Positions 5,534-64,000 of a stretch of DNA of 64,000 nt are shown one piece after another (the first letter of the stretch is position 1; the number at the start of each line of letters is the position of its first letter). The translations under genes and the position numbers were made by a program. Source of the DNA: Nitrospirota bacterium (GTDB lineage Bacteria; Nitrospirota; Thermodesulfovibrionia; Thermodesulfovibrionales; JdFR-86); contig CAVRJY010000001.1 of NCBI GenBank assembly GCA_963721805.1, forward strand, positions 672,001 through 736,000, given 5' to 3'. The notes beneath the pieces are model-generated. The model had not been told where the DNA came from, ran no database searches, and worked only from the letters and a program-made list of their open reading frames with translations.

Positions 5534-8521
<2,988 letters not shown>

Positions 8522-13232: not shown

Positions 13233-14817
<1,585 letters not shown>

Positions 14818-14953
14818 ATGACTTCGGGTCTTCATGTCCCGACACATCCGGCGAAAACCAAGAAACACCGACTGTGATGCCTACTGCGTAGTTTTAATAG
14901 ATGTCTTATAGGGACGTCTTTTTGTTCTTTGAAAACAGAGGGAAGAAGAATAA

Positions 14954-18105
<3,152 letters not shown>

Positions 18106-18334
18106 ATTTTTCCACTCCCTCTGTTTTTATGGAACAAAAAGGCATCCATCTCTGACCGGTGCGGGGATGGGGGTTGAAAAAACTCCGTTTTCATGTATGA
18201 TGTAAGGTGTCCCCTGCTTCGGGCCGGATGCCTGAAGGGAAGGCGTGCCGAGGGGAGACGTGCGGCATGCCGGTTTTTGTTTGTGCGCCGGCCACTCCGG
18301 CAGCCCTGATCGCTAGGACGGAAACAACGCGGGC

Positions 18335-19774
18335 ATGAGAGAAAAAGACATCTTCGAAGAGATCATCGACATCGGCAAACGCCGTGGCGTGCTCACCTAT
18401 GACGAGATCAACGAGGCCCTTCCGGCCGAGTTCTTTTCCCCGGACGAGATGGAAGACCTCATGGAGCTCCTCCATGAGCTCGGCATCAAGGTCGTCGACG
18501 ACGACACCCTCGTCCCCGAGGAGGAGCCTGAGGAAGAGGAGGAGGTCACCGAGTACGAGAAGACCGAGGACCTCGTCCAGGCCTATTTCCACTCGATGGG
18601 CAACATCTCGATCCTGACCAAGGACGAGGAGACCCACCTCGCCAAGCAGCTCGAAGAGGGCCGCGAGATCATGAAGGGCATCCTCGGCAAGATGGCCATC
18701 TACGAGCACCCGGAGCCGACCGAGGTCATAGGGACCGAGGAGGGCGCCGAGGAGGCCGCAGCGGACGCCGACGAGGACAAGGACATCCTCGCGATCGCTT
18801 TCAGCTACCAGCGCCTCGAGGCGATCATGGCCCGCGTGGCCGAGCAGGACCGCAAGATCGAGCGCTTCGGCAATGTCAAGGCCCTCAGGAAGTCCGTCGC
18901 CGACAAAAAGAAGCTCGGCAAGAACGTCAAGAAGGCCGACGCCCTGCTGAAGGAAGTCCAGAAGGAATACAAGCGCGTCGAGCAGGAGACCGGCCTCAAG
19001 ATGGACCAGATCCGCGAGGACTGGGTCCGCCTGAGCAAGGTGCGCGAGATGATGGAGACCGCCAAAAACGAGCTCATCACCCGTAACCTGCGCCTCGTCG
19101 TCAACATCGCAAAAAACTACGTCGGCCGCGGCCTGCCACTATTGGACCTCATACAGGAAGGCAACATCGGCCTGATGAAGGCAGTGGACAAGTTCAAGTA
19201 CGAGAAGGGTTTCAAGTTCAGCACCTACGCGACGTGGTGGATCAGGCAGGCCATCACGCGCGCGCTTATCGACCAGACGAAGACCATCCGCGTGCCCGTG
19301 CACATGATGGAGTTCTATAACCGCGTTACCAAGGCCGCGCGCGAGCTCACGCACCAGCTCGGCAAGGAGCCGGACAACGAGGAGATCGCAAAGAAGCTCG
19401 CCGTGCCCTCAAAGAAGGTCGAGGAGGTCTTCCGCGCCATACAGGACCCGATCGCGCTTCAGACCCCGATAGGGGACGAGGACACCGAGCTTGAGGACTT
19501 CATCGGCGACAAGGTCAGCCCGTCTCCGTATTCGGACGCCGAGCGCATCGAGAGCTCCGAGCAGCTTCAGCGCGTGCTCCGCACCCTCTCGCCCAAGGAA
19601 GAGAAGGTCATCAAGATGCGCTTCGGCATCGGAGCCGACCGCGACCATACGCTCGAGGAGGTCGGCCGCTACCTCTCGATCACCCGCGAGCGCGTCCGTC
19701 AGATCGAAGCGAAGGCGCTTCGTAAATTGAAACACCCCTCGCGCCTCAAGGCCCTTCGCCTGCTGATGTCCTAG
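18335..19774 (+). CDS. RpoD-like group 1/2 sigma70 factor with region 1.1
   Basis: GKRRGVLTYDEINEALP (region 1.1), [52 protein letters not shown]. Confidence 0.95.
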   Translation: MREKDIFEEIIDIGKRRGVLTYDEINEALPAEFFSPDEMEDLMELLHELGIKVVDDDTLVPEEEPEEEEEVTEYEKTEDLVQAYFHSMGNISILTKDEETHLAKQLEEGREIMKGILGKMAIYEHPEPTEVIGTEEGAEEAAADADEDKDILAIAFSYQRLEAIMARVAEQDRKIERFGNVKALRKSVADKKKLGKNVKKADALLKEVQKEYKRVEQETGLKMDQIREDWVRLSKVREMMETAKNELITRNLRLVVNIAKNYVGRGLPLLDLIQEGNIGLMKAVDKFKYEKGFKFSTYATWWIRQAITRALIDQTKTIRVPVHMMEFYNRVTKAARELTHQLGKEPDNEEIAKKLAVPSKKVEEVFRAIQDPIALQTPIGDEDTELEDFIGDKVSPSPYSDAERIESSEQLQRVLRTLSPKEEKVIKMRFGIGADRDHTLEEVGRYLSITRERVRQIEAKALRKLKHPSRLKALRLLMS

Positions 19775-21501: not shown

Positions 21502-21567
21502 AGCCGATTATATCAAAGAGTACCTCGGGGCGCCAGCCGGCGATGGCGGGCCGCGAAGGGGCCGCGT

Positions 21568-22662
21568 TTAAAGCAGCCCGAGCCTGATCGCCTTCACCGC
21601 GGCCTCGGTGCGGTTTTGGGTGTTGAGTTTGGCAAACAGGCTCTGGATGTAGGTCTGGACGGTCCTTTCGGCGATGCCGAGCTCGAATGCAATCTCCTTG
21701 TCCTGCAGGCCCTGGGCCAGGCGCCTGATGACCTCGAGCTCGCGCCTGGTGAGGTGCGCCCTCGCATCGCCATCCTTTTTCCTTGAGTCGATCAGGGACA
21801 CCCAGCCGCTGCCCTTCACCGGCAGGTACTGGCCGCCGTGCGTCTCGTCGAACCTGTAGCATATCGCCATCCCGTATGGCGGCGCGTAGGCCTCGATCTC
21901 CTGAAATATAAGGCAGGGTTTGGTGTCGTCATGCCGCGGGACGGTCTTAAGCCGACGGATCTGCTCCATGAGCGGCATCGGGAGCGAGGCCGGCACGCTG
22001 CCGTCGATTCCTTTTATCACCCTCCTGGCGGTCTCGTTGATGAACGTGATCTTACCCTCGTCGTCGGAGGTGATGATCCCGAACGGGAATGCGTCGAAGC
22101 AAGACACCGTGAAGAAGTCCGTGCCGAGCAGCCAGCGATAACGGAGGAAGCTATAAAAGACATAGGGTGAGATCCTGCTAATCGCCAGCATTTCCTGATC
22201 GGATGACCTCGGCGCATCGGCTCTTATCCCGCCGACTATCCCTGTCTGGACCCCTGACTCGCTGCAGAATACGGTTTCGAAGCCGCACAGGAAACCAAAC
22301 GGCTTGTATAACTCATCGTAGTCCACGGGGTAGTTTTTCTCGACGTCGTTGAAGATCTTTGTCGCATACCCGAACTTTTGGGCGGCCGCGACGTGGTCTT
22401 TGTATAAGGGCATGTTCGCGTGGTCTTTATTGACGTATCCGGTCAGAAACTCAGGGGGGAAGCCGCAGAAAATGCCCCTGAAGTCGTATCCCGTGCCCGA
22501 GACCCCCGTGACGCAGATCGGGGTGAATGCGATATCCTGCTTGATCCGCTCGAAGATGGATTCGATGTAGGTCTCGCGGTCCAGAAGGTATATGGAGCGC
22601 TCCTTGATGTCGCGCACCAGCTGCGCGAGCAGGTCTGTCCGGCTGGAGGCCCTGGGTCCCAT
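21568..22662 (-). CDS. LuxR-family regulator (GAF/autoinducer-like + PAS-like + HTH), paralog 1
   Basis: LTRRELEVIRRLAQGLQDKEIAFELGIAERTVQTYIQSLFAKL HTH; PFGIITSDDEGKITFINETA PAS-like segment. Confidence 0.9.
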   Translation of the reverse strand: MGPRASSRTDLLAQLVRDIKERSIYLLDRETYIESIFERIKQDIAFTPICVTGVSGTGYDFRGIFCGFPPEFLTGYVNKDHANMPLYKDHVAAAQKFGYATKIFNDVEKNYPVDYDELYKPFGFLCGFETVFCSESGVQTGIVGGIRADAPRSSDQEMLAISRISPYVFYSFLRYRWLLGTDFFTVSCFDAFPFGIITSDDEGKITFINETARRVIKGIDGSVPASLPMPLMEQIRRLKTVPRHDDTKPCLIFQEIEAYAPPYGMAICYRFDETHGGQYLPVKGSGWVSLIDSRKKDGDARAHLTRRELEVIRRLAQGLQDKEIAFELGIAERTVQTYIQSLFAKLNTQNRTEAAVKAIRLGLL

Positions 22663-22676
22663 CGCGCTCTCTTTCT

Positions 22677-23753
22677 TTAAAGCAGCCCGAGCTTGATCGC
22701 CTTCACGGCGGCCTCGGTGCGGTTGTGTGTCTCGAGCTTTGCAAACAGGCTCTGGATGTAGGTCTGGACGGTCTTCTCGGCGATGCCGAGCTCGAAGGCG
22801 ATCTCCTTATCCTGAAGCCCCCGGCCGATGAGGCGGATTACCTCGAGCTCGCGCTGAGAGATCAGGGCCTTCTGGGCCATGTCCTTTTTCCTTGAGTCGA
22901 TGAAAAACACCCAGCCGCTGCCCTTGACCGGCAAGTATCTTCCTCCGAAGTCCTCATCGAACCTGTAGCAGACCGTCACCCCGTACGGCGGGACGTACGC
23001 CTCGATCTCCTGGAATATCAGGCATGGCTCACTATAATGTTTAGGGACCTCATCCAATAGCCGCATCTGCTCCATAAAGCGTGCTGGAAGAACGCTGTGG
23101 GCCTGCCTGCCCGTGCTCCCTATAAGCTGCCTGGCGGCCTCGTTTAGGTATGTGATGTTCCCCGCACGATCCGAGGTGACGATCCCTAACGGGAACTCGT
23201 CATAGCAGACCACTGTGAAGAAGTCCGCCTCTACTAGCCAGCGGTAGCGCTGAAAGGCATAAAATATAAATGGCGCAATCTGGCGCACGGCTGACATTTC
23301 ATCTTCCGCAAAGACAACCTCAGCGCTCTTTAATGCGCCCCAGACACCGATAACATTGCCGGACTGATCGCAGAATACCGTCTCCATGCCGCACTGAAAC
23401 CCGAATGGTTTAAAACGCTCATCATAGTCCTCGGGATAGTTATGGGCCATGTCATCAGAAAACTTTGTCGCGTACCCGAGTTTTTTTGCGGCAGCAATAT
23501 GGTCACGGTAGAAATCCAGTTTTGCATGGTTTTTGTTCAGGTAGATTGCGAGGTACTTCGGGGGATAACCGCACATTATGCCCTTGAGGTCATACCCGGT
23601 GCCGGAGACCCCGGTGACGGTGATCGGGACAAACGCTATGTCCTTCTTGATGCGGTCGAAGATGGATTCGATATATGTCTCACGGTCAAGGAGATAAACG
23701 GCGCGCTCCTTGATATCGGCTACAAGCTTGTTAAGCCCGCTGAGTTTGGCCAT
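22677..23753 (-). CDS. LuxR-family regulator, paralog 2
   Basis: Collinear with paralog 1 over the full length, near-identical HTH; start set at ATG 23753 by alignment. Confidence 0.9.
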   Translation of the reverse strand: MAKLSGLNKLVADIKERAVYLLDRETYIESIFDRIKKDIAFVPITVTGVSGTGYDLKGIMCGYPPKYLAIYLNKNHAKLDFYRDHIAAAKKLGYATKFSDDMAHNYPEDYDERFKPFGFQCGMETVFCDQSGNVIGVWGALKSAEVVFAEDEMSAVRQIAPFIFYAFQRYRWLVEADFFTVVCYDEFPLGIVTSDRAGNITYLNEAARQLIGSTGRQAHSVLPARFMEQMRLLDEVPKHYSEPCLIFQEIEAYVPPYGVTVCYRFDEDFGGRYLPVKGSGWVFFIDSRKKDMAQKALISQRELEVIRLIGRGLQDKEIAFELGIAEKTVQTYIQSLFAKLETHNRTEAAVKAIKLGLL

Positions 23754-27185: not shown

Positions 27186-28724
27186 TTAGTTGCTATCCAG
27201 GAAGTCCTTGAGCCAGCGACTTCTTGAGGGATGTTTTAATTTCTTGAGCGCCTTCACCTCGATCTGCCTGATGCGCTCCCGCGTAACCTCAAACTCCTGC
27301 CCTATCTCCTCCAGCGTCAGCGGCGAGTCGTCGCCAATCCCGAACCGGCGGCGCAGGACCATCGCCTCTTTGTCGTTAAGCGAGTTCAATAGCTTCTGGA
27401 CCTTGTTGCAGAGGTCCTCGTTGATCGCCTCCTGAAGGGGCGAGGCGTGCGACTTGTCCTCGATGAAATCCCCGAGGCTGCTGTCCTCGTCCTCGCCTAC
27501 GGGCGTCTCGAGCGATATGGGCTCCCGCGTGATCTTCTGGATGCCCTTGACCTTCTCCACTGGCAGGTGCAGGCGGGCCGCGATCTGCTCGGGCGTGGGC
27601 TCCGCGCCGAGCTCCTGGAATATCTCGCGCGAGATGCGTATGATGCGGTTTATCGTCTCGACCATGTGCACCGGGATGCGGATCGTGCGCGACTGGTCCG
27701 CCAGCGCGCGCGTGATGGACTGCCTGATCCACCAGGTGGCGTAGGTCGAAAACTTATACCCGCGCGCGTACTCGAACTTCTCGACCGCGCGCATCAGCCC
27801 GATGTTGCCCTCCTGTATGAGGTCCGACAGGCTCAGGCCCTTGCCCATGTGGCGCTTGGCTATGCTGATGACGAGCCGCAGGTTGGCCTCGATCAGCTCG
27901 CGCTTGGCGTCCTGCAGGTTGAACTCCTCGGTCTCGATCGCGCCGAGGGCGTCCCTCAGCTCCGATGGGGCGAGGTCCAGCGATGCGCACATCTCACCCA
28001 GAAGGCGGCGGCACTCGATGTACCGGGCCGCGGCCGCGCGAGTCTCGGCCGACTTGATCCCGGCCGGTACGGACTTGAGCGTACCGGGCTTGATGCGGGC
28101 CGACACGAGCCGCCTGGTCAGGCCCTTGATGTCGGCCTCGGTGTCCAGGGCCGCGATGATCTCTTTCTTGAGGTCCTCGGAGAAGCTCATCACGACCTCT
28201 TCTTTGAGGCTCAGCGCCTTGATGCCCTCAAGGAGCGCGGCCTTGGCCGCATCCACGGACTTGGTCGAAGGGCTTTTGGCGCGCGAGGCGGCGAGCTTCT
28301 TTGCGGCCTTCTGGTAGGCCTCCATGAGCTTGCCTGCGCGGACCGTATCTTTATATAGCTTGCCGCGCTCCTCGGTCATGTCCTCGTCTGAGGTCTCGTC
28401 GACGCCGATGACGACATCGCCGATCGGGGCCTCGCCGCGCTCGACGCGCTCGCCTAATGCGAGGAGCTTCTTGAGCGTCAGCGGGCGCAGGAAGACCACG
28501 CAGGTCAGTTCCTTGCGGCTCTTTTCGATCTTGCGCGCGATCCTGACCTCGCCCTCGCGCGTAAGCAGAGGGCGGTGGGCCATCTCCCTCAGGTAGACCT
28601 TTACCGGCTCGTACTCGCCCTCGTAGGGCAGGGGTACCGCGACCTCTTCCTCCTCGGCAGGGGCCTCGGGGTCTTCGATCGCGTCGGAGTCGTATGTCTC
28701 TTGCGGTTCGTCAAACCTTTTCAT
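27186..28724 (-). CDS. rpoD: RNA polymerase sigma factor RpoD (dnaG-linked)
   Basis: [55 protein letters not shown]; overlaps the dnaG stop. Confidence 0.93.
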
Positions 28725-44448: not shown

Positions 44449-44530
44449 AAAAAAACTCCCGCCCTCGCAATCCCGAGAGTAGGAGTCATCAGTCCGGCTT
44501 CGGACGGTTAAAGGCGAACTCCATCGCCGT
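44449..44530 (-). promoter_or_regulatory. Fluoride (crcB-motif) riboswitch with intrinsic terminator
   Basis: Minus strand reads GGCGATGGAGTTCGCC-TTTAACC-GTCCGAAGCCGGAC-TGATGACTCCTAC, then CTCCTACTCTCG..CGAGGGCGGGAG-T7; TGcTAATGT -10 at 44537-44545. Confidence 0.95.
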
Positions 44531-44557
44531 GTATAAACATTAGCACAAGGATTTTAT

Positions 44558-49479: not shown

Positions 49480-50334
49480 ATGGTCAAGTTCACCGAGCAC
49501 GTGCCGTTTGTCGATATCGCTTACAGCTATGAGGTCGAGAAGGTCCTCTACAGGGGCAAGAGCAAGTTTCAGGACATCATGGTATTTACGAACCCGCAGT
49601 TCGGCAAGATGCTGATCCTCGACGGCGCGGTGCAGATCACCGAGCGCGACGAGTTTTTCTACCACGAGATGATTACCCACCCGCTGATGCACGCCCACCC
49701 GAACCCGAAGCGCGTCGTGGTCATAGGCGGCGGCGACGGCGGCACGGTGCGCGAGGTCCTAAAGCACAAATCGGTCGAGAAGGTCTACTTCGTCGAGATC
49801 GACCCTGAGGTCATACGCGTATCGAGGGAGTTCTTCCCGACCGTGGCAGGAAGCGTAGGCGATCCGCGCGTCGAGATCAAGAACATGGACGGGGCGGAAT
49901 TTATCAAGTCGCTCAACAACGAGATCGACGTCGTGATCGTGGACTCCACCGACCCGATCGGGTTTGCGCGCAGCCTGTTCAGCGAGCAGTTCCTCCGCAC
50001 CCTGCATCGTGCGCTCACGCCTGAGGGGATGTACGTCACGCAGTCCGAGAGCATGCTGATGCACGCCGATATCGTCAGGGAGATACAGGAGACGATAAAG
50101 AAGGTCTTTCCGTTGACGGACCTCTATTCCACCTGCATTGCGACCTATCCGGGCAACTGGTGGACGTTCTCGTGCGGATCGAAGTCTCACGACATGCGCA
50201 CCATGCGCAGACCGTTTGAGGTCGAGACGAAATACTATGACGATGAAATACACGCGCACTCGTTCATGCCGAAGAGGCTTTACGCACGGCTTATGGTCGG
50301 GTGGCATCCGCTGGTAGTTTTCAAAGCGCGCTAA
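49480..50334 (+). CDS. speE: Spermidine synthase (aminopropyltransferase)
   Basis: LDGAVQ..DEFFYHEM, IGGGDGG, VDSTDP; GGAGG SD; the C-terminal tail may be frameshifted. Confidence 0.93.
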   Translation: MVKFTEHVPFVDIAYSYEVEKVLYRGKSKFQDIMVFTNPQFGKMLILDGAVQITERDEFFYHEMITHPLMHAHPNPKRVVVIGGGDGGTVREVLKHKSVEKVYFVEIDPEVIRVSREFFPTVAGSVGDPRVEIKNMDGAEFIKSLNNEIDVVIVDSTDPIGFARSLFSEQFLRTLHRALTPEGMYVTQSESMLMHADIVREIQETIKKVFPLTDLYSTCIATYPGNWWTFSCGSKSHDMRTMRRPFEVETKYYDDEIHAHSFMPKRLYARLMVGWHPLVVFKAR

Positions 50335-50355
50335 ATACGCGTGATACGTCGTCAG
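50323..50355 (-). repeat. Long-hairpin repeat, partial copy 7 (outer end only)
   Basis: AAAGCGCGCTAAATACGCGTGATACGTCGTCAG matches the end of copy 5, AAAGACGCGCTAAATACGCGTGATACTGCGTCAG. Confidence 0.85.
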
Positions 50356-50429
50356 GGGGCAGCGCCCCCTCGCTCCTATTCGCGGCGCTAACGCACCACT
50401 CACTTAAAAGGGGCCATCCGGCCCCTTTC

Positions 50430-51163
50430 TTATTGTGGAGATTGTGCTGGTTTGTTAATTGGCTCAAAGCGAATTATTTTTGCTTCGGGGTAGAGCTTAC
50501 TTAAAGCCTCGTGAAGTTTGTCGCGGGTTGTTTCCAAAAAAACTACTGTATCGTCAATATGTTCGATTGCATCATCAGTCATTCTGGATAACTTTGTTGC
50601 CACTCTTTCACCAAGAGCGTTCACATATTGTTGTTTTGAGTATTTAACCCCCTGCGTCATTCCAGCATTCTCGATCAGCGGTTGAGCAATCTCTTCATGA
50701 AGTTTGGAGCGTTCATTGAGTATTTTCGCAGCAGTCTGATATTTACTTTCTGCTATTAATAATTGACCGAGATAGTCACGGTATTCAGTTTCCAGCAGAA
50801 AGCTCAGACTGCTAACATCAAACATCCATCGTTCATAATCCATAGGGGAAATGAAGGTTGCATACCAATGAATCTGAGATCATTCGACCTGATCGAATCA
50901 ATAAATTGTGTTTGGATTAGCCTGAGGCCATTCCACTGTTGCATAAGAATAAACATGGCACGATTACCAAAGGCTACTTCATCGGATTGTTTTCTTCTTA
51001 AACGTTCTTGCTCTTCGGAACGTTTCCGTAGTAAGTGTGCTCGCTCCTCGAGTACGAAGGCATACCAAGCACCGCCAAACGCGGCTCCAAATGCGGCTAG
51101 TGCTGTGATTATCGCGGATAAGATTGTCTCAGAAATCATGCTTTGCACAATGCAACACCTCAT
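50430..51163 (-). CDS. AT-rich membrane-anchored hypothetical protein split by a frameshift near 50845
   Basis: ORFs 50804..51163 (N-terminal TM segment) and 50430..50843 join if one base of the G4 run is removed (..MQPSFP-MDYERW..). Confidence 0.6.
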
Positions 51164-51626: not shown

Positions 51627-52029
51627 AAACCTGACTATTATCCTACATCAAAGCGGCCTGTTTGTGTAAGACCTCTTTAACTAACCATAGTTAATCAAAA
51701 ACGCACGGATTTTAATTTTTCCTATCAATTTCGGTTTATATATAAACCGTAGGTTATCGCTTTTTTTGTTTCGTTGTGCTTCAATATCGTATGAGTTTGA
51801 TATGGTCATATTTGATGGGCGGGGCAGGGGAGGCGGGAGAGAGTGCCACATGTTCGGATAAGGCCGCAAAAACCGCACTTTTTATCCGAACATCCGAACA
51901 GGGACGATCTCGAAAAAATGATGTTTTCCGGGGAGTTAGCGTTGCTCTTGCCTCAAACATCCGAACACATAAAATAAAACGTGCGCGCGCGGAATGCGTA
52001 ACTATACCTAAGCGCGGACATCAGAACAT

Positions 52030-59737: not shown

Positions 59738-60573
59738 AGGACGCCCGCATACTGCGCGAAGAGATCGAGAACATCGACACGCTCCCGACGATCCCAAGCG
59801 TGCTGCAGCGCCTCCTGCGCGTCATCGAAAACCCCAAGGTCTCCCTTAACGAGATCAGCAATACGATACTCAGCGACCCGGTACTGACCTCGCGCGTGCT
59901 GAAGCTCGTAAACTCGCCTATATACGGCTTCCCCGGCAGGATCAGCTCGCTCACTCAGGCCCTGATACTGCTCGGCCTCAACGTGGTCAGGGGCATGCTG
60001 CTCGGCGTATCGGTGTTCGAGGCCATGGAGATGACTATGACCGGGCTTTGGAAGCACTCGCTCGGCTGCGCCGTGACGGCGCGCCTCGTGGCGAAGCGCG
60101 TCGGGGCCTCCGAGCCCGAGGAGATCGCGGTCGCGGCCCTGCTGCACGACATCGGCAAGGTCGTGCTCAAGCTCAAGTATCCCGAGGACTACTCTGCGGT
60201 GATCAAGAGGACCGAGGAGTCCGGGATGTACATAGTCGAGGTCGAGAAGGAGATATTCCATATCACGCACGCCGACGCCGGCTCGTGGATAGCGCAGAAG
60301 TGGAACTTCCCCAAGCACCTCGTCGAGGCCATAGCATATCACCACAAGCCTCAGATCGCCCGAAACGTCCCGATGCACGCCGCCATAGTGCACTTCTCCG
60401 ACGCGCTCGTGCGGGCCAAGGGCTTCGGGTTTTCCGGCGACCCCTACGTGCCGCAGGTCCACCCGGCGGCCTGGAAGCTCCTGAACCTCTCCGACGGGGA
60501 GGTCATGGACCTGCTTCGGGAGCTCGACGACGCCCTGAGCGTGGCCGAAGACACGATCCTGAGCGATGACTAA
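59734..60573 (+). CDS. HDOD-domain protein
   Basis: LPTIP, DPVLTSRVLKLVNS, LLHDIGK, WNFP, YHH. Confidence 0.92.
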   Translation: MKDARILREEIENIDTLPTIPSVLQRLLRVIENPKVSLNEISNTILSDPVLTSRVLKLVNSPIYGFPGRISSLTQALILLGLNVVRGMLLGVSVFEAMEMTMTGLWKHSLGCAVTARLVAKRVGASEPEEIAVAALLHDIGKVVLKLKYPEDYSAVIKRTEESGMYIVEVEKEIFHITHADAGSWIAQKWNFPKHLVEAIAYHHKPQIARNVPMHAAIVHFSDALVRAKGFGFSGDPYVPQVHPAAWKLLNLSDGEVMDLLRELDDALSVAEDTILSDD

Positions 60574-61492
60574 CGACCAGCCCTCGATAACCGTTATCTC
60601 AAGGGACGAGGGGTTCAAGGACATGGTCTCCGGCCTGCTCGGAGACAGGTACGTGCTCGTCAACTTCCCTGACATCCAGACCTCGATAGACTATATCTAC
60701 AACTCGCTGCCGAGCATGGTCCTGATCCACCTGCTCAAGGACGACCGCCTCTCTCCCTCGATACTCAAGGCCTTCAAGAGCGACCCGATATTCTCTCAGC
60801 TCCCGGTGCTCGGCGTGCTGGAGGACGGCTACGTAATCCCCTCATGGGACTTCCTGCTGGTGGACGATTTCATCCGGGGCATCGACGTGGTGGCGGACCT
60901 CTCGCTGCGCGCGGACCTCTGCGTAAAGCGCTCCGAGCGCATGGTGGACGTAAGCCCCCTGACCAAACTTCCGGGCAATATCGCGATATTAAAGCAGGTC
61001 CAGAGCAGGCTCTCGCGCGGCGAGAAGTTCGCGCTCGCCTACTGCGACCTGGACCACTTCAAGCCCTTCAACGACCGCTACGGCTTCGGCCGCGGAGATG
61101 AGGTCATAAAGATGCTCGGCCGCCTGATCCTCAACAGCGTGTTAGAGGCCCAGCCCGTAGGTAGCTTCGTCGGCCACATCGGAGGAGACGACTTCATCTT
61201 CATCACCGAGACCGCGGTCGCGGACCAGACCGCGCACAGCATCACGGAGTTCTTCGACAACATCATCCCGACCTTCTATGACCAGGCGGACAACGAGGCC
61301 GGCTGCATCGCCTCGGTCGACCGCGAGGGCAAGCAGCGCCAGTTCCCGATCATGAGCCTCTCGATAGGCATCGCGCACAACCTGAGCCGGAGCTTCATAC
61401 ACTTCGGGGAGATGGCCGAGGCGGCGTCGGAGATGAAGAAGTATGCTAAGAACCACGAAGGCAGCTTCGTGGTGATGGACAGACGCAGGTAG
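60566..61492 (+). CDS. Diguanylate cyclase (degenerate REC + GGDEF)
   Basis: PLTKLPGN, DLDHFKPFNDRYG..GD, HIGGDDF. Confidence 0.9.
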   Translation: MTNDQPSITVISRDEGFKDMVSGLLGDRYVLVNFPDIQTSIDYIYNSLPSMVLIHLLKDDRLSPSILKAFKSDPIFSQLPVLGVLEDGYVIPSWDFLLVDDFIRGIDVVADLSLRADLCVKRSERMVDVSPLTKLPGNIAILKQVQSRLSRGEKFALAYCDLDHFKPFNDRYGFGRGDEVIKMLGRLILNSVLEAQPVGSFVGHIGGDDFIFITETAVADQTAHSITEFFDNIIPTFYDQADNEAGCIASVDREGKQRQFPIMSLSIGIAHNLSRSFIHFGEMAEAASEMKKYAKNHEGSFVVMDRRR

Positions 61493-61511
61493 GGTTCTGT
61501 CGCTTCGCTGG

Positions 61512-61673
61512 AAAGACGCGCTAAATACGCGTGATACTGCGTCAGTGCTTCAAAGACACGCCCTCGGAGTACGTCTCAGTACACCGTCGGGCGGTCTTCT
61601 CGCCCTTCCTTGTCTGACGCGATTTATCGCGCTTTGGTGATACGCGCAGGGTCAAGCGCGAGCGGTCAACGGC
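61512..61673 (-). repeat. Long-hairpin interspersed repeat, copy 5 (inverted)
   Basis: Reverse complement reads GCCGTTGACC..AAAGCGCGATAAAT..TCAGACAAGG..GAAGACCGCCC..GTAC-N6-GTAC..ACGCAGTATCA..CTTT. Confidence 0.93.
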
Positions 61674-61700
61674 ATTGGAAAAACTTTATGGTTATAAGGG

Positions 61701-62705
61701 TTAGTTTTTGGGGACAAACGAATACACGACGCCACTATTTGGCAATAACCATTCATTATACTGCATTGAAAAGAAACCTTCACGATGATCCTCAATAACC
61801 TTTTCTGGATGAGAGACCATCGGCTGAAACCTTAATTTCATTTCTTTAGGATATGATATTGTCATATAAAAAGTTTTTGTGGGATGTGCCATTGACCAAT
61901 TTGAAAACTGGCCTGTTTCCATTTTATAGACTGATTTTAATTCCACATACAATCCATTTTCGCTAAAATTACTCAAGGGGAAAATTAGTCCCTTTTGTTC
62001 AATTTCACTGCGCGGAACTTGCTTCTCAGTGCCATTGCATTTAACAACAAATTCATCATCTTTCTTATTCATTGACAATACGGGGTTGTTTTTTACCTTC
62101 ATTTCAACGCTTATAATATCTAAGAACTCTCCTGGATCTGGCTTCCACTTTATAGTATCCTGAATTTTTCCGCCAACCATTTTACAGGCATATGTAAGTC
62201 TATCGCTAATTAAAATACCTGGCGGTTCATCTGACTCTTCCACTACAATCTCGCACTTAACGTTATCTCTATATGGTTCGCTAATATACTTACTTAAGTT
62301 ATCCTGAAAATAATTCAAAAAACTTCCTTCCTTATCTATATCTGAGGTATGAAAATATGCTTTCAAGGTCTTAATCTGAAGATTTGAAAGGGTTTCTTGA
62401 TCCATAGAATTTAAATATTCTTGTTCCAAAACTACATTTTTCAATCTTTCCTCAAAATAATGCTGCCAATCAGGTAATTGCAAAAAGAAAGAAAATATGC
62501 CAGATGTGAAAATCGTGAAACCAAGCAGCTCAAAAAAATTATATATCAGCTTAGATATATCCGATGCTTTTTCAAAATCCGCCGGTTTATTATAAAGAGT
62601 TATTATCGCGATTAATAATCCCATTGATACCAAAAGAGTCGCGGACAAAACACTTAGCTTTCTCAGAATGTGTAAAATCTTCTTTTCTTTCTTTCCAGTT
62701 ATCAC
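61701..62705 (-). CDS. AT-rich hypothetical protein with 2 N-terminal TM segments and a beta-rich C-terminal domain
   Basis: 334-aa ORF, clearly AT-rich relative to flanks; two hydrophobic segments in the first ~75 aa; start codon uncertain. Confidence 0.8.
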   Translation of the reverse strand: MITGKKEKKILHILRKLSVLSATLLVSMGLLIAIITLYNKPADFEKASDISKLIYNFFELLGFTIFTSGIFSFFLQLPDWQHYFEERLKNVVLEQEYLNSMDQETLSNLQIKTLKAYFHTSDIDKEGSFLNYFQDNLSKYISEPYRDNVKCEIVVEESDEPPGILISDRLTYACKMVGGKIQDTIKWKPDPGEFLDIISVEMKVKNNPVLSMNKKDDEFVVKCNGTEKQVPRSEIEQKGLIFPLSNFSENGLYVELKSVYKMETGQFSNWSMAHPTKTFYMTISYPKEMKLRFQPMVSHPEKVIEDHREGFFSMQYNEWLLPNSGVVYSFVPKN

Positions 62706-62818
62706 GAAGAGTTCCGCCTAACAGTGATTTTACGTTGCTGTTATCATAAGTGAACATGCACATTAAATGCAATAAATATTGCAGAAAAAAAAGAACATTA
62801 GCGGCACTTGTGATCAAT

Positions 62819-62979
62819 GCCGTTGACCGCTCGCGCGATTAGCACACAGCACCACCAAAGCGCGATAAATTAGGCTCAGACAAGGAACGGCGAGGACCCC
62901 AACCGGAGGCGTACTGTGTCGTACGTTGAGGATTGGGGCCGCAGCCGTGACGCAGTATCAGGCAATTTAGCGCGGCTTT
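62819..62979 (+). repeat. Long-hairpin interspersed repeat, copy 6
   Basis: GCCGTTGACC..AAAGCGCGATAAAT..TCAGACAAGG..CGTAC-N6-GTACG..ACGCAGTATCA..GCTTT. Confidence 0.93.
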
Positions 62980-64000
62980 CCAATCCGCCCCTCTATCAAG
63001 AGATCAGGCCCGACGCGCCGCACCGTCATATCCCCTACCATGAGCGCGTCTTCGAGTTTGCGGAACGCATCGCCCCCGACGACCGGGAATGAGCGCAGCC
63101 CCGCCGATGATCTTGGGAGCGACGAATATCATCACCCGGTCCACGATGCCCTCCATCAGGGCATGGCCGTTGAGTGTCGCTCCACCCTCGATCAGCACCG
63201 AGTTCATCCCGATAGAGCCAAGCTCCCGAAGCAGCCACTTCAAGTCGAGCGTGCCCTTGTAGCCCAGTATCCTCACCCCGCGCGCCTCGAACGAGCGCGC
63301 CAGAGCACCACCACTCTCCCTCGTAACGATGATCGTATCCGGCGGGGTCTGAAGCACCCGTGCGCTGTCCGCGATGCGAAGTGACGGGTCGATGACCACG
63401 CGCACCGGCTGGTGCGCACCTCGAATGCGCGCGGTGAGTTCCGGGTCGTCGGCCGCTACGGTGCCGATCCCTGTGATGACCGCGTCCACCGAAGAGCGGA
63501 GCCTGTGCACGATCTTGCGCGCCGGTGCCGAGGTGATCCATTTCGACTGGCCCTCGGGTGTGGCGATCTTGCCATCTAGCGTCATCGCGGCCTTCAGGGT
63601 GACGAACGGGAGCCCGGTCGTGATTTGCTTGATATATGCCTCGTTGAGTGCGCGGGCCTTGTCCTCGAGCACGCAGCAGGTCGTCTTGATCCCGGCCGCC
63701 TCGATCTCGGCGATGCCCCGGCCCGAGACCTTCGGGTTTGGGTCCCTCATCGCGACCACCACGCGGGCCACTCCCGAGGCGATGATCGCTTTTGTGCAGG
63801 GCGGGGTGCGCTTCTTGGTGTGGCAGCAGGGCTCCAAAGAGACATAGAGCGTCGCACCACGCGCTTTCTCGCCCGCGCTTTGGAGCACGAGCGCCTCGGC
63901 GTGAGGCGTGCCTGCCCTGCGGTGGTAGTCCTCGGCGATGACCCGCCCGGAGCGCACCAGCACCGCGCCGACCATCGGGTTCGGGCTCGTGCGGCCCCGG
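62967..64000 (-). CDS. ribD: Riboflavin biosynthesis RibD (5' end off the window; +1 frameshift at ~63100)
   Basis: TSPNPMVG, HAE, LEPCCH..PPC, TLDGKIA, EGG. Removing one base of the C4 run at 63099-63102 restores ..VGPDLLIEGRIGKPR*. Confidence 0.95.

Follow-up and report, generated by a model that had tools for sequence, protein, structure and literature searches.

A low-GC single-gene islet between head-to-head structured repeats in a Nitrospirota genome: a possible filled slot

How does a lone AT-rich gene come to lie between two inward-facing copies of a repeat in a far more GC-rich genome? The question is raised by a locus in the assembly of a Nitrospirota bacterium (GCA_963721805.1; 2.78 Mb, 9 contigs, 94% complete), of which a stretch of 64,000 nucleotides was analyzed (contig CAVRJY010000001.1, contig 1 of the assembly, positions 672001-736000; referred to here as the window). 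The window carries six copies of a structured repeat, and copies 5 (minus strand) and 6 (plus strand) stand head-to-head around an insert holding a single gene, called here the cargo gene. It is judged somewhat more probable than otherwise that the locus is a filled slot between two structured repeats anchored at stop codons, with the head of the repeat as the likely capture point. According to this reading, the cargo would be a horizontally acquired single-gene islet in a slot made of two lineage-specific, highly amplified repeats. The tail of each repeat is anchored at a host stop codon, at this locus those of the convergent GGDEF and ribD genes, so that the heads necessarily meet across the only free intergenic space, and foreign DNA would have been captured between them. 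The head may then act as a docking or insertion point, worked by an enzyme or by recombination between the arms. Within an unusual genome-wide pattern the locus is an ordinary instance, and a clean minimal one, with a single gene and with neither the iteron module nor the insertion sequence (IS) that other modules carry. A preliminary description, made from the letters of the sequence, had already pictured two inward-facing repeats enclosing one foreign gene. That picture is upheld in outline, whereas its stress on the 22-bp identity of the ends, on inversion and on defence is unsupported.

The genome-wide pattern was obtained with an nhmmer profile built from the six window copies, which gave 232 matches, 175 of them near full length (about 175 bases each), spread over six contigs and making up 1.3% of the genome. 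Low-GC DNA lies on one side of these copies. The 300-bp flank has a GC content below 50% on the head side of 93 of the 175 copies and on the tail side of only 5, against a background of 7.5% of 9,248 genome windows. Seen from the islands, 70 of 180 AT-rich islands of at least 300 bp adjoin a repeat; 67 of these 70 are faced by heads only, and 17 have heads at both edges. Neighbouring copies no more than 6 kb apart are head-to-head 63 times, compared with 30, 22 and 20 times for the other three orientations. Head-to-head modules with both heads intact number 51, their inserts range from 8 bp to 5.8 kb, and 83 full-length copies stand outside modules. Near-empty doublets are also found, with inserts of 8 bp (L044) and 65 bp (L002), and the centre of the empty doublet is palindrome-like (GGTCAACGGCAT-ATCTAATT-AAGCAGTTGACC). 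Modules and near-empty doublets together fit a slot that is either occupied or empty; the slot studied here may once have been empty, and a dedicated process may put cargo at the heads. The idea of a recurrent module, raised in the preliminary description, is borne out by the 51 pairs, by the diversity of their accessory cargo and by the near-empty doublets.

The tails are related to host genes. A host-like gene, recognized by its high GC content at third codon positions (GC3), converges on the tail of 117 of the 175 copies, with its stop codon at a median of 11 nt and within 40 nt in 97 of these 117, and no host-like coding signal is seen beyond the head in 101 of the 175. At the nucleotide level, a converging open reading frame (ORF) ends between -60 and +12 nt from the AAAGCGC terminus in 84 of the 175 copies, including nine in which a TGA is built into the element's own TGAAAGCGC end. 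Because tails are anchored at the stop codons of converging genes, heads come to face each other, as they do at this locus. Here the GGDEF and ribD genes converge on the module (Table 1), with 16 nt between the GGDEF stop and the tail of copy 5 and 21 nt between the ribD stop and the tail of copy 6. The sharp shift in base composition reported earlier at the repeat ends is reproduced: GC content passes from 0.545 (61500-61699) to 0.29-0.37 (61700-62799) and returns to 0.575 (62800-62999). If taken from the repeat ends given by nhmmer, the insert (module M20, GC 0.34) measures 1,141 bp.

Table 1. Features of the repeat-bounded locus, in window coordinates
Feature	Coordinates	Strand	Evidence and remarks
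Host GGDEF-domain gene	60566..61492	+	ORF; Pfam GGDEF, E 3.4e-15; stop codon 61490-61492
Structured repeat copy 5	61509..61685	-	Covariance model R1, 158.5 bits, E 2.9e-34, full length; alignments
Copy 5 orientation	61509..61685	-	Tail toward GGDEF stop, head toward cargo
Copy 5 22-nt head CAATGCCGTTGACCGCTCGCGC, left arm of perfect inverted repeat	61656..61677	-	Repeat search and pattern scan
Low-GC insert (cargo islet), 1,137 bp	61678..62814		GC 0.29-0.37 versus about 0.61 for the genome
Cargo gene, 334 aa, sole ORF of insert	61701..62705	-	ORF list
Structured repeat copy 6	62807..62982	+	Covariance model R1, 140.7 bits, E 2.9e-30, full length
Copy 6 orientation	62807..62982	+	Head toward cargo, tail toward ribD stop
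Copy 6 22-nt head, right arm of perfect inverted repeat	62815..62836	+	Repeat search and pattern scan
Host ribD gene (deaminase and reductase)	63004..63975	-	Pfam RibD_C, E 6.9e-48, and dCMP_cyt_deam_1; stop codon 63004-63006

Each head combines an AT-rich leader with GCCGTTGACC and with a first hairpin that varies. The perfect 22-bp inverted end that first drew attention to copies 5 and 6 is present, with exactly two window sites at up to three mismatches and 0.00 expected (100 shuffles); the covariance model places the two copies head-to-head, and directly past the 22-mer their inner hairpins part ways (GCTTGACCCTGCGCG versus GATTAGCACACAGC), both as had been described. The 22-mer was also proposed to mark a crossover, and this is not supported by its distribution. 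The genome has five exact copies of it, 24 of its first 18 nt and 142 of GCCGTTGACC. Heads were sorted into subtypes A (82), B (54), C (27) and D (10), with 10 unclassified; copies 5 and 6 both belong to subtype B, and subtypes agree within 14 of 51 modules, compared with 13.9 expected by permutation. Similarly, whole-arm identity is 0.739 within modules (n=46) and 0.735 between random pairs. The perfect inverted end is thus a subfamily consensus, and the shared 22-mer is not evidence of crossover, co-origin or homogenization at this locus. A segment that is invertible or site-specifically exchangeable, in the style of a shufflon or a dif module, with crossover in the shared GCCGTTGACC head, would account for the perfect inverted ends, for a head-to-head geometry resembling that of modules bounded by inverted recombination sites, and for the palindrome-like centre of the empty doublet. 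However, its supposed crossover mark is the subfamily consensus and the arms are not homogenized, the sequence of the locus holds no inverted copy of the head motif at the cargo ends, and no recombinase gene was found beside this locus (ORF list and Pfam; only GGDEF and ribD adjoin) or, as far as examined, beside other modules. Nor is there an obvious gain from inverting a lone gene that has its own upstream region, and this explanation is considered very improbable. A sigma-70 promoter in the head was rejected on inspection, as TTGACC is followed by no conserved -10 element in any subtype; a promoter scan of the locus gave five promoter-like sites where 3.3 are expected, none of them within a head.

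What the other modules contain was surveyed with Pfam on 130 cargo ORFs. Toxin-antitoxin and related pairs are represented by MNT/HepT (three times), ParE with Phd, and DUF4160/DUF2442; a MazE-type antitoxin and a PemK-type toxin lie in separate modules, and Gp49 occurs in modules, once with an HTH gene following it. Restriction-modification cargo consists of an MmeI-type enzyme and a methylase-Mrr fusion. Further accessory cargo includes KAP NTPase, Abi_C, HEPN, DUF5677, PLD, HNH, GNAT, SRAP and ankyrin matches, many ORFs have no Pfam family, and insertion sequences of two types are present. Upstream of the heads, additional modules can be recognized. Of 183 heads, 47 have in front of them an iteron module of about 360 bp with ATCCGAACA iterons, a motif counted 97 times genome-wide; a hairpin-rich module precedes another 26, and 8 heads are in doublets. 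The iteron module occurs at exactly one head in 29 of the 51 modules and at both heads in none, although about four double cases would be expected by simple arithmetic from 29 of 102 heads. This one-sidedness hints at a directional process and, of all the observations, speaks most strongly against a wholly passive origin. Seventeen of the 51 modules have none, and among them is the present locus, which lacks the iteron module. This locus had been called the cleanest example of the module, a description that does not hold given the extra iteron module at one head of 29 others.

Elsewhere in the window, an iteron module lies before the head of copy 4 (51690-52027), with a CGGTTTATATATAAACCG palindrome, several (C)ATCCGAACA and a GC-rich CGTGCGCGCGCGG. 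A tail-only repeat fragment on the minus strand (50318-50430), together with the short GC-rich hairpins that come after it and belong to the second flank module, bounds the left side of a low-GC islet (50430-51150) upstream of copy 4 and is read as a degenerate left arm. Partial copies also form tandem arrays of 3' thirds (model positions about 106-177) together with rearranged fragments, at C1:456393-456635 and C1:1546422-1546718. Breakpoints recur near model positions 44-48 and 106-109, which suggests that the element is modular.

The two types of insertion sequence were both considered as partners of the repeat and rejected. Six identical copies of an IS200 element (602 bp, GCCCCGTGGCTTGCCACGGGG hairpins at its ends) account for all of the PF01797 matches (e.g. 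C4:138543-138902); all six lie in or beside low-GC cargo near repeats, at varied AT-rich sites. The IS200 Y1 transposase belongs to an ordinary IS with its own ends, unrelated to the repeat. The rve element, an IS of 1.2 kb, has terminal inverted repeats of its own (TIRs; TGTAAAGGTTAC...) and 7-8-bp duplications such as CCCCGGAA; its target is a recurrent sequence, …CATACCACAAC.CCCCGGAACTGGTCAATAGGAACTG, near heads, and the ten listed copies (C1:669723-670922 and nine others) are all within 2.5 kb of a repeat. As an autonomous partner, its transposase fails in the same way, the ends of the IS being unrelated to the repeat. One module (L036) holds little beyond an rve transposase gene and, together with the inverted arms, would suit a composite or foldback transposon in which the roughly 175-bp repeats act as long terminal inverted repeats and the cargo is a passenger. 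Against this, flanking duplications of at least 10 nt were found at none of 46 modules and at 2 of 83 non-module copies (duplications of 2-9 nt were outside the scope, the exact ends being uncertain), the arms are not matched pairs, and the rve IS has its own TIRs and duplications inside the module. Moreover, the 83 full copies outside modules and the tails at stop codons, which tie each arm to its own host gene, are hard to reconcile with such a transposon, which is given almost no weight.

A more far-reaching form of the slot reading takes the repeats to be one half, the chromosomal one, of a gene-capture system not described before, with about 50 dispersed slots. Folded elements placed at host stop codons would offer their heads as docking sites, and an enzyme would insert and exchange cassettes there. 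This is proposed tentatively and considered doubtful. In such a system, the iteron module at one end of the cassettes would parallel the attC site of an integron cassette, and the present locus would count as a minimal slot that has been filled. If heads are docking points, accessory and defence genes could be stored and swapped in a dispersed, integron-independent manner while host genes are shielded, and structured repeats would gain a new class, one tied to stop codons in a defined way.

Several observations weigh against capture at the heads or speak for passive coincidence, in which an element similar to repetitive extragenic palindromic (REP) sequences or to miniature inverted-repeat transposable elements (MITEs) homes to, or is tolerated at, gene 3' ends, and foreign DNA gathers in the same gaps. 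Anchoring of tails at stop codons (117/175) by itself turns heads to any intergenic DNA and accounts for the polarity geometrically, so that polarity is no proof of docking. The arms of modules are unrelated pairs, no repeat borders 110 of the 180 AT-rich islands, and homologues of the cargo form low-GC islets in other hosts without such a repeat. High-identity sharing of cargo between modules was not seen except for IS copies, giving no sign of recent shuffling. Regarding a dedicated enzyme, none was found for the repeats among the candidates checked (TnpB, IntI, IS200 and rve). TnpB (PF07282) has no match in the genome, leading to rejection of the TnpB/omega-RNA idea, and the best match to the integron integrase model TIGR02249 scores 68.8 bits versus a cut-off of 265, with similar sub-cut-off matches in 14 control genomes; seven tyrosine recombinases are encoded in the genome, their linkage to repeats having been left out of this search. 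Passive coincidence is nevertheless in tension with the 70 of 180 AT-rich islands that adjoin a repeat occupying 1.3% of the genome, with the iteron module that is one-sided in 29 of 51 modules and never double, suggestive of direction, and with the strong conservation of the head motif (142 occurrences of GCCGTTGACC), found only where cargo association occurs. It is regarded as the main rival, though a less likely one, and the filled slot with capture at the heads is retained as the preferred reading. Even if the association is passive, the genome contains an uncatalogued structured element, conserved across genera and located a few bases from stop codons.

The fold of this element is documented by the alignments. 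Unpaired invariant motifs (TTGACC, TCAGAC.AGG, CCG, GAGG and GAC...GTATCA.GCG) alternate with stems that change in concert, and a closing helix, AAAGCGC...GCGCTTT, reads the same on both strands. In an alignment of 42 distinct sequences, other genera included, which was fitted to the covariance model and is thereby biased toward the structure, paired cells reach 95.9%, compared with 83.0% after shuffling and 27-47% with slid partners. Changes on both sides were observed at 16 of 29 pairs, and the covariation score was reached by none of 500 shuffles. Given deep divergence together with compensatory changes common to several genera, the alignments indicate that the repeat is a folded element under selection and not a recent selfish burst. 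Two comparisons bear on the strand. An unbiased check of folding stability favours the head-to-tail strand over the complementary one in 146 of the 175 copies (mean -4.9 kcal/mol; Wilcoxon p 2e-22), and G-U pairs outnumber A-C pairs 62 to 10. By these counts, the head-to-tail strand is the one that folds, and RNA is a likelier form for it than single-stranded DNA. Repeat orientation has no replication-strand bias (plus/minus 53/64 in windows of positive skew and 31/27 in windows of negative skew), which argues against single-strand mechanics of the IS200/IS605 or attC kind. Rfam 15 gave no repeat match at gathering score in the whole window, and none at E <=1 in four module loci.

A folded RNA next to stop codons could act mainly as an insulator or terminator, stopping antisense transcription from foreign DNA into host genes, with selection keeping copies at islet borders. 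This explanation concerns function and is compatible with either a slot or a passive origin. The strand that folds best would be the one transcribed outward from the cargo, the tail lies right at host stop codons, and the closing helix is available on both strands. However, the U-tract typical of intrinsic terminators does not follow the closing helix, a terminator scan of the locus gave two sites versus 1.8 expected, neither at the closing helix, and in one relative (G002) 12 of the 16 core copies point their tails at gene starts. Insulation as the main role is judged highly unlikely. With the repeat so close to stop codons, any part it plays in termination, mRNA stability or translation is open to direct tests.

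Comparison with relatives separates the core of the repeat from its head. Among 30 relatives, all from other genera and with only 84 candidates scored per genome, a diverged core was detected by the covariance model in five: at least 17 copies in G002, 19 in G003, 4 in G006, 3 in G013 and 1 in G012. These cores keep the unpaired motifs, and their closing helix is altered on both sides. They have neither the TTGACC leader nor the first hairpin, so that the head is found only on copies of the genome studied here. Low-GC polarity is absent from 16 G002 copies (GC of head and tail flanks 0.63 and 0.61) and from 17 G003 copies (0.55 and 0.55). Tail anchoring in these two genomes, whose assemblies are fragmented and whose copy numbers are small, is weaker or different; the G002 tails pointing toward gene starts rather than stops (12/16; L103-L118) indicate that the relation of the repeat to genes differs between genera. 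Even with these limits, cargo bracketing goes with the head module borne only by this genome's copies. The GGDEF-ribD junction was also sought in the 30 relatives, where ribD and GGDEF matches lie on different contigs and so gave no orthologous junction to compare.

The cargo protein is rare. Only 20 relatives, all unnamed, were found among 5.8 billion proteins, and searches returned no Pfam family, no PHROGs family and, in the protein atlas, unnamed clusters only. A sequence profile gave marginal matches in the Protein Data Bank (PDB; E 0.002 to IbpA), and the viral fold library returned only M1-aminopeptidase-like giant-virus proteins with low template-modeling (TM) scores. The architecture of two transmembrane helices and a beta-rich part, predicted in the preliminary description, agrees with an alignment-based AlphaFold model (mean predicted local distance difference test score, pLDDT, 83.2), in which two long N-terminal helices (residues 2-38 and 49-75) lead through a helical linker into an all-beta domain that starts at residue 145. 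In this model, the helices likely form a membrane hairpin. The beta-sandwich resembles non-catalytic N-domains of M1 aminopeptidases, leukotriene A4 (LTA4) hydrolase and ribophorin (Z 10-11.6), with which Foldseek agrees, and the model indicates a binding-type domain on a membrane anchor, a fold that does not reveal function. The suggestion of a defence effector finds no support in these Pfam and PHROGs results, and PADLOC matched one of 19 family members, marginally, to a generic '2TM' model (E 0.0049). The cargo is a rare orphan membrane protein, and nothing backs a defence role.

Relatives of the cargo are encoded by scattered hosts, including Mariprofundus, Nevskia, Bowmanella, Azospira, Duganella, Reyranella and a Deferribacteraceae metagenome-assembled genome (MAG). 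In nearly all of 14 long homologue loci, the gene forms a low-GC islet relative to its flanks, and the neighbours are unrelated. Part of the refuting observation named in the preliminary description was that homologues of the gene are never flanked by the repeat. Outside the lineage this is so, the repeat being present at none of 29 loci (239 kb); within the genome it is not, since a paralogue (32% identity over 310 residues) is flanked as part of a module (L020) ending at the window's first repeat copy. Low-GC islets in unrelated hosts without the repeat imply that the repeat belongs to the host and that the cargo gene is an accessory gene that travels, spreading among many unrelated hosts in the form of a single-gene islet of low GC. 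Only one of eight homologue loci, in the Deferribacteraceae MAG (L083), has a repeated hairpin on both sides. There the homologue has a GC content of 0.30, compared with 0.48-0.50 in the flanks, and is bracketed by two copies of one terminator-like palindrome, which reads GGGGCGGATTTTCCGCCCC and then TGTTTTAT (L083:5744-5780 and 6991-7027).

Other features of the window were recorded alongside. The rRNA operon (13233-18106) has insertions relative to the Rfam models, of 68 nt in the 16S rRNA (near position 80) and 234 nt in the 23S rRNA (near 283); its spacer is 145 nt long without a tRNA, and no 5S rRNA was reported in the window. A fluoride riboswitch (crcB motif, 58.6 bits) lies at 44473-44537 on the minus strand. 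A tandem duplication of about 1.1 kb at 21567-23658, in which three repeat families have copies 1106-1109 nt apart with 69-87% identity, probably corresponds to tandem paralogous genes. A 260-nt inverted repeat with 73% complementarity (19053-19312 and 27657-27916, 8.3 kb apart) probably represents paralogous coding segments on opposite strands.

Among known systems, integrons come to mind through their cargo. Integron cassettes carry toxin-antitoxin pairs, acetyltransferases, restriction genes and many unknowns, a spectrum similar to that of the modules described here, and they combine low-GC foreign genes with structured, imperfect hairpin sites. However, no IntI-type integrase accompanies the repeat, whose copies are dispersed and head-to-head (63 versus 20-30) instead of forming a one-orientation array after cassettes. 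In attC sites, the inverse core consensus RYYYAAC ... GTTRRRY pairs at the base of the hairpin; the head GTTGACC has no complementary core at the other end of the repeat, which is closed by AAAGCGC/GCGCTTT, and replication-strand bias is lacking. The same lack of orientation bias to the replication strand separates the repeat from single-stranded DNA elements of the IS200/IS605 type such as palindrome-associated transposable elements (PATEs). In Acinetobacter plasmids, pdif modules are accessory modules bounded by inversely oriented XerC/D sites. The likeness is one of geometry only, no dif consensus having been compared: small accessory modules, inverted conserved sites and variable content. 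A 28-bp dif-like site contrasts with the 175-nt folded repeat at host stop codons, which is chromosomal and forms about 50 modules.

Bacterial MITEs (Correia/NEMIS, ERIC and RUP) are high-copy, intergenic, non-coding elements with a long hairpin. The repeat resembles them in copy number, intergenic position, a long hairpin with a TIR-like closing helix and absence of coding capacity. It differs in that neither of the two ISs compared, rve and IS200, has matching ends, other transposase families not having been surveyed, and in that its copies are deeply diverged with compensatory changes across genera. REP elements, including those grouped as bacterial interspersed mosaic elements (BIMEs), are hot spots for insertions. 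Literature searches surfaced work on REP with REP-associated tyrosine transposases (RAYTs) and on HUH endonucleases, and the listings and abstract openings returned contain no description of this element. REP/BIME sequences and REP doublets forming hairpins (REPINs) with their RAYTs are abundant extragenic hairpin repeats that lie at gene 3' ends and are often paired in inverted orientation (PMC2817692). The repeat shares this trait, being an abundant extragenic palindrome at gene 3' ends (232 matches; median of 11 nt in 117/175). No RAYT goes with it, the six Y1 transposase matches being identical IS200 copies with unrelated ends. Whereas REP sequences are palindromes of 20-40 nt, the element described here is about 175 nt long, has a multi-loop core of about 120 nt with invariant unpaired motifs, and brackets diverse gene cargo.

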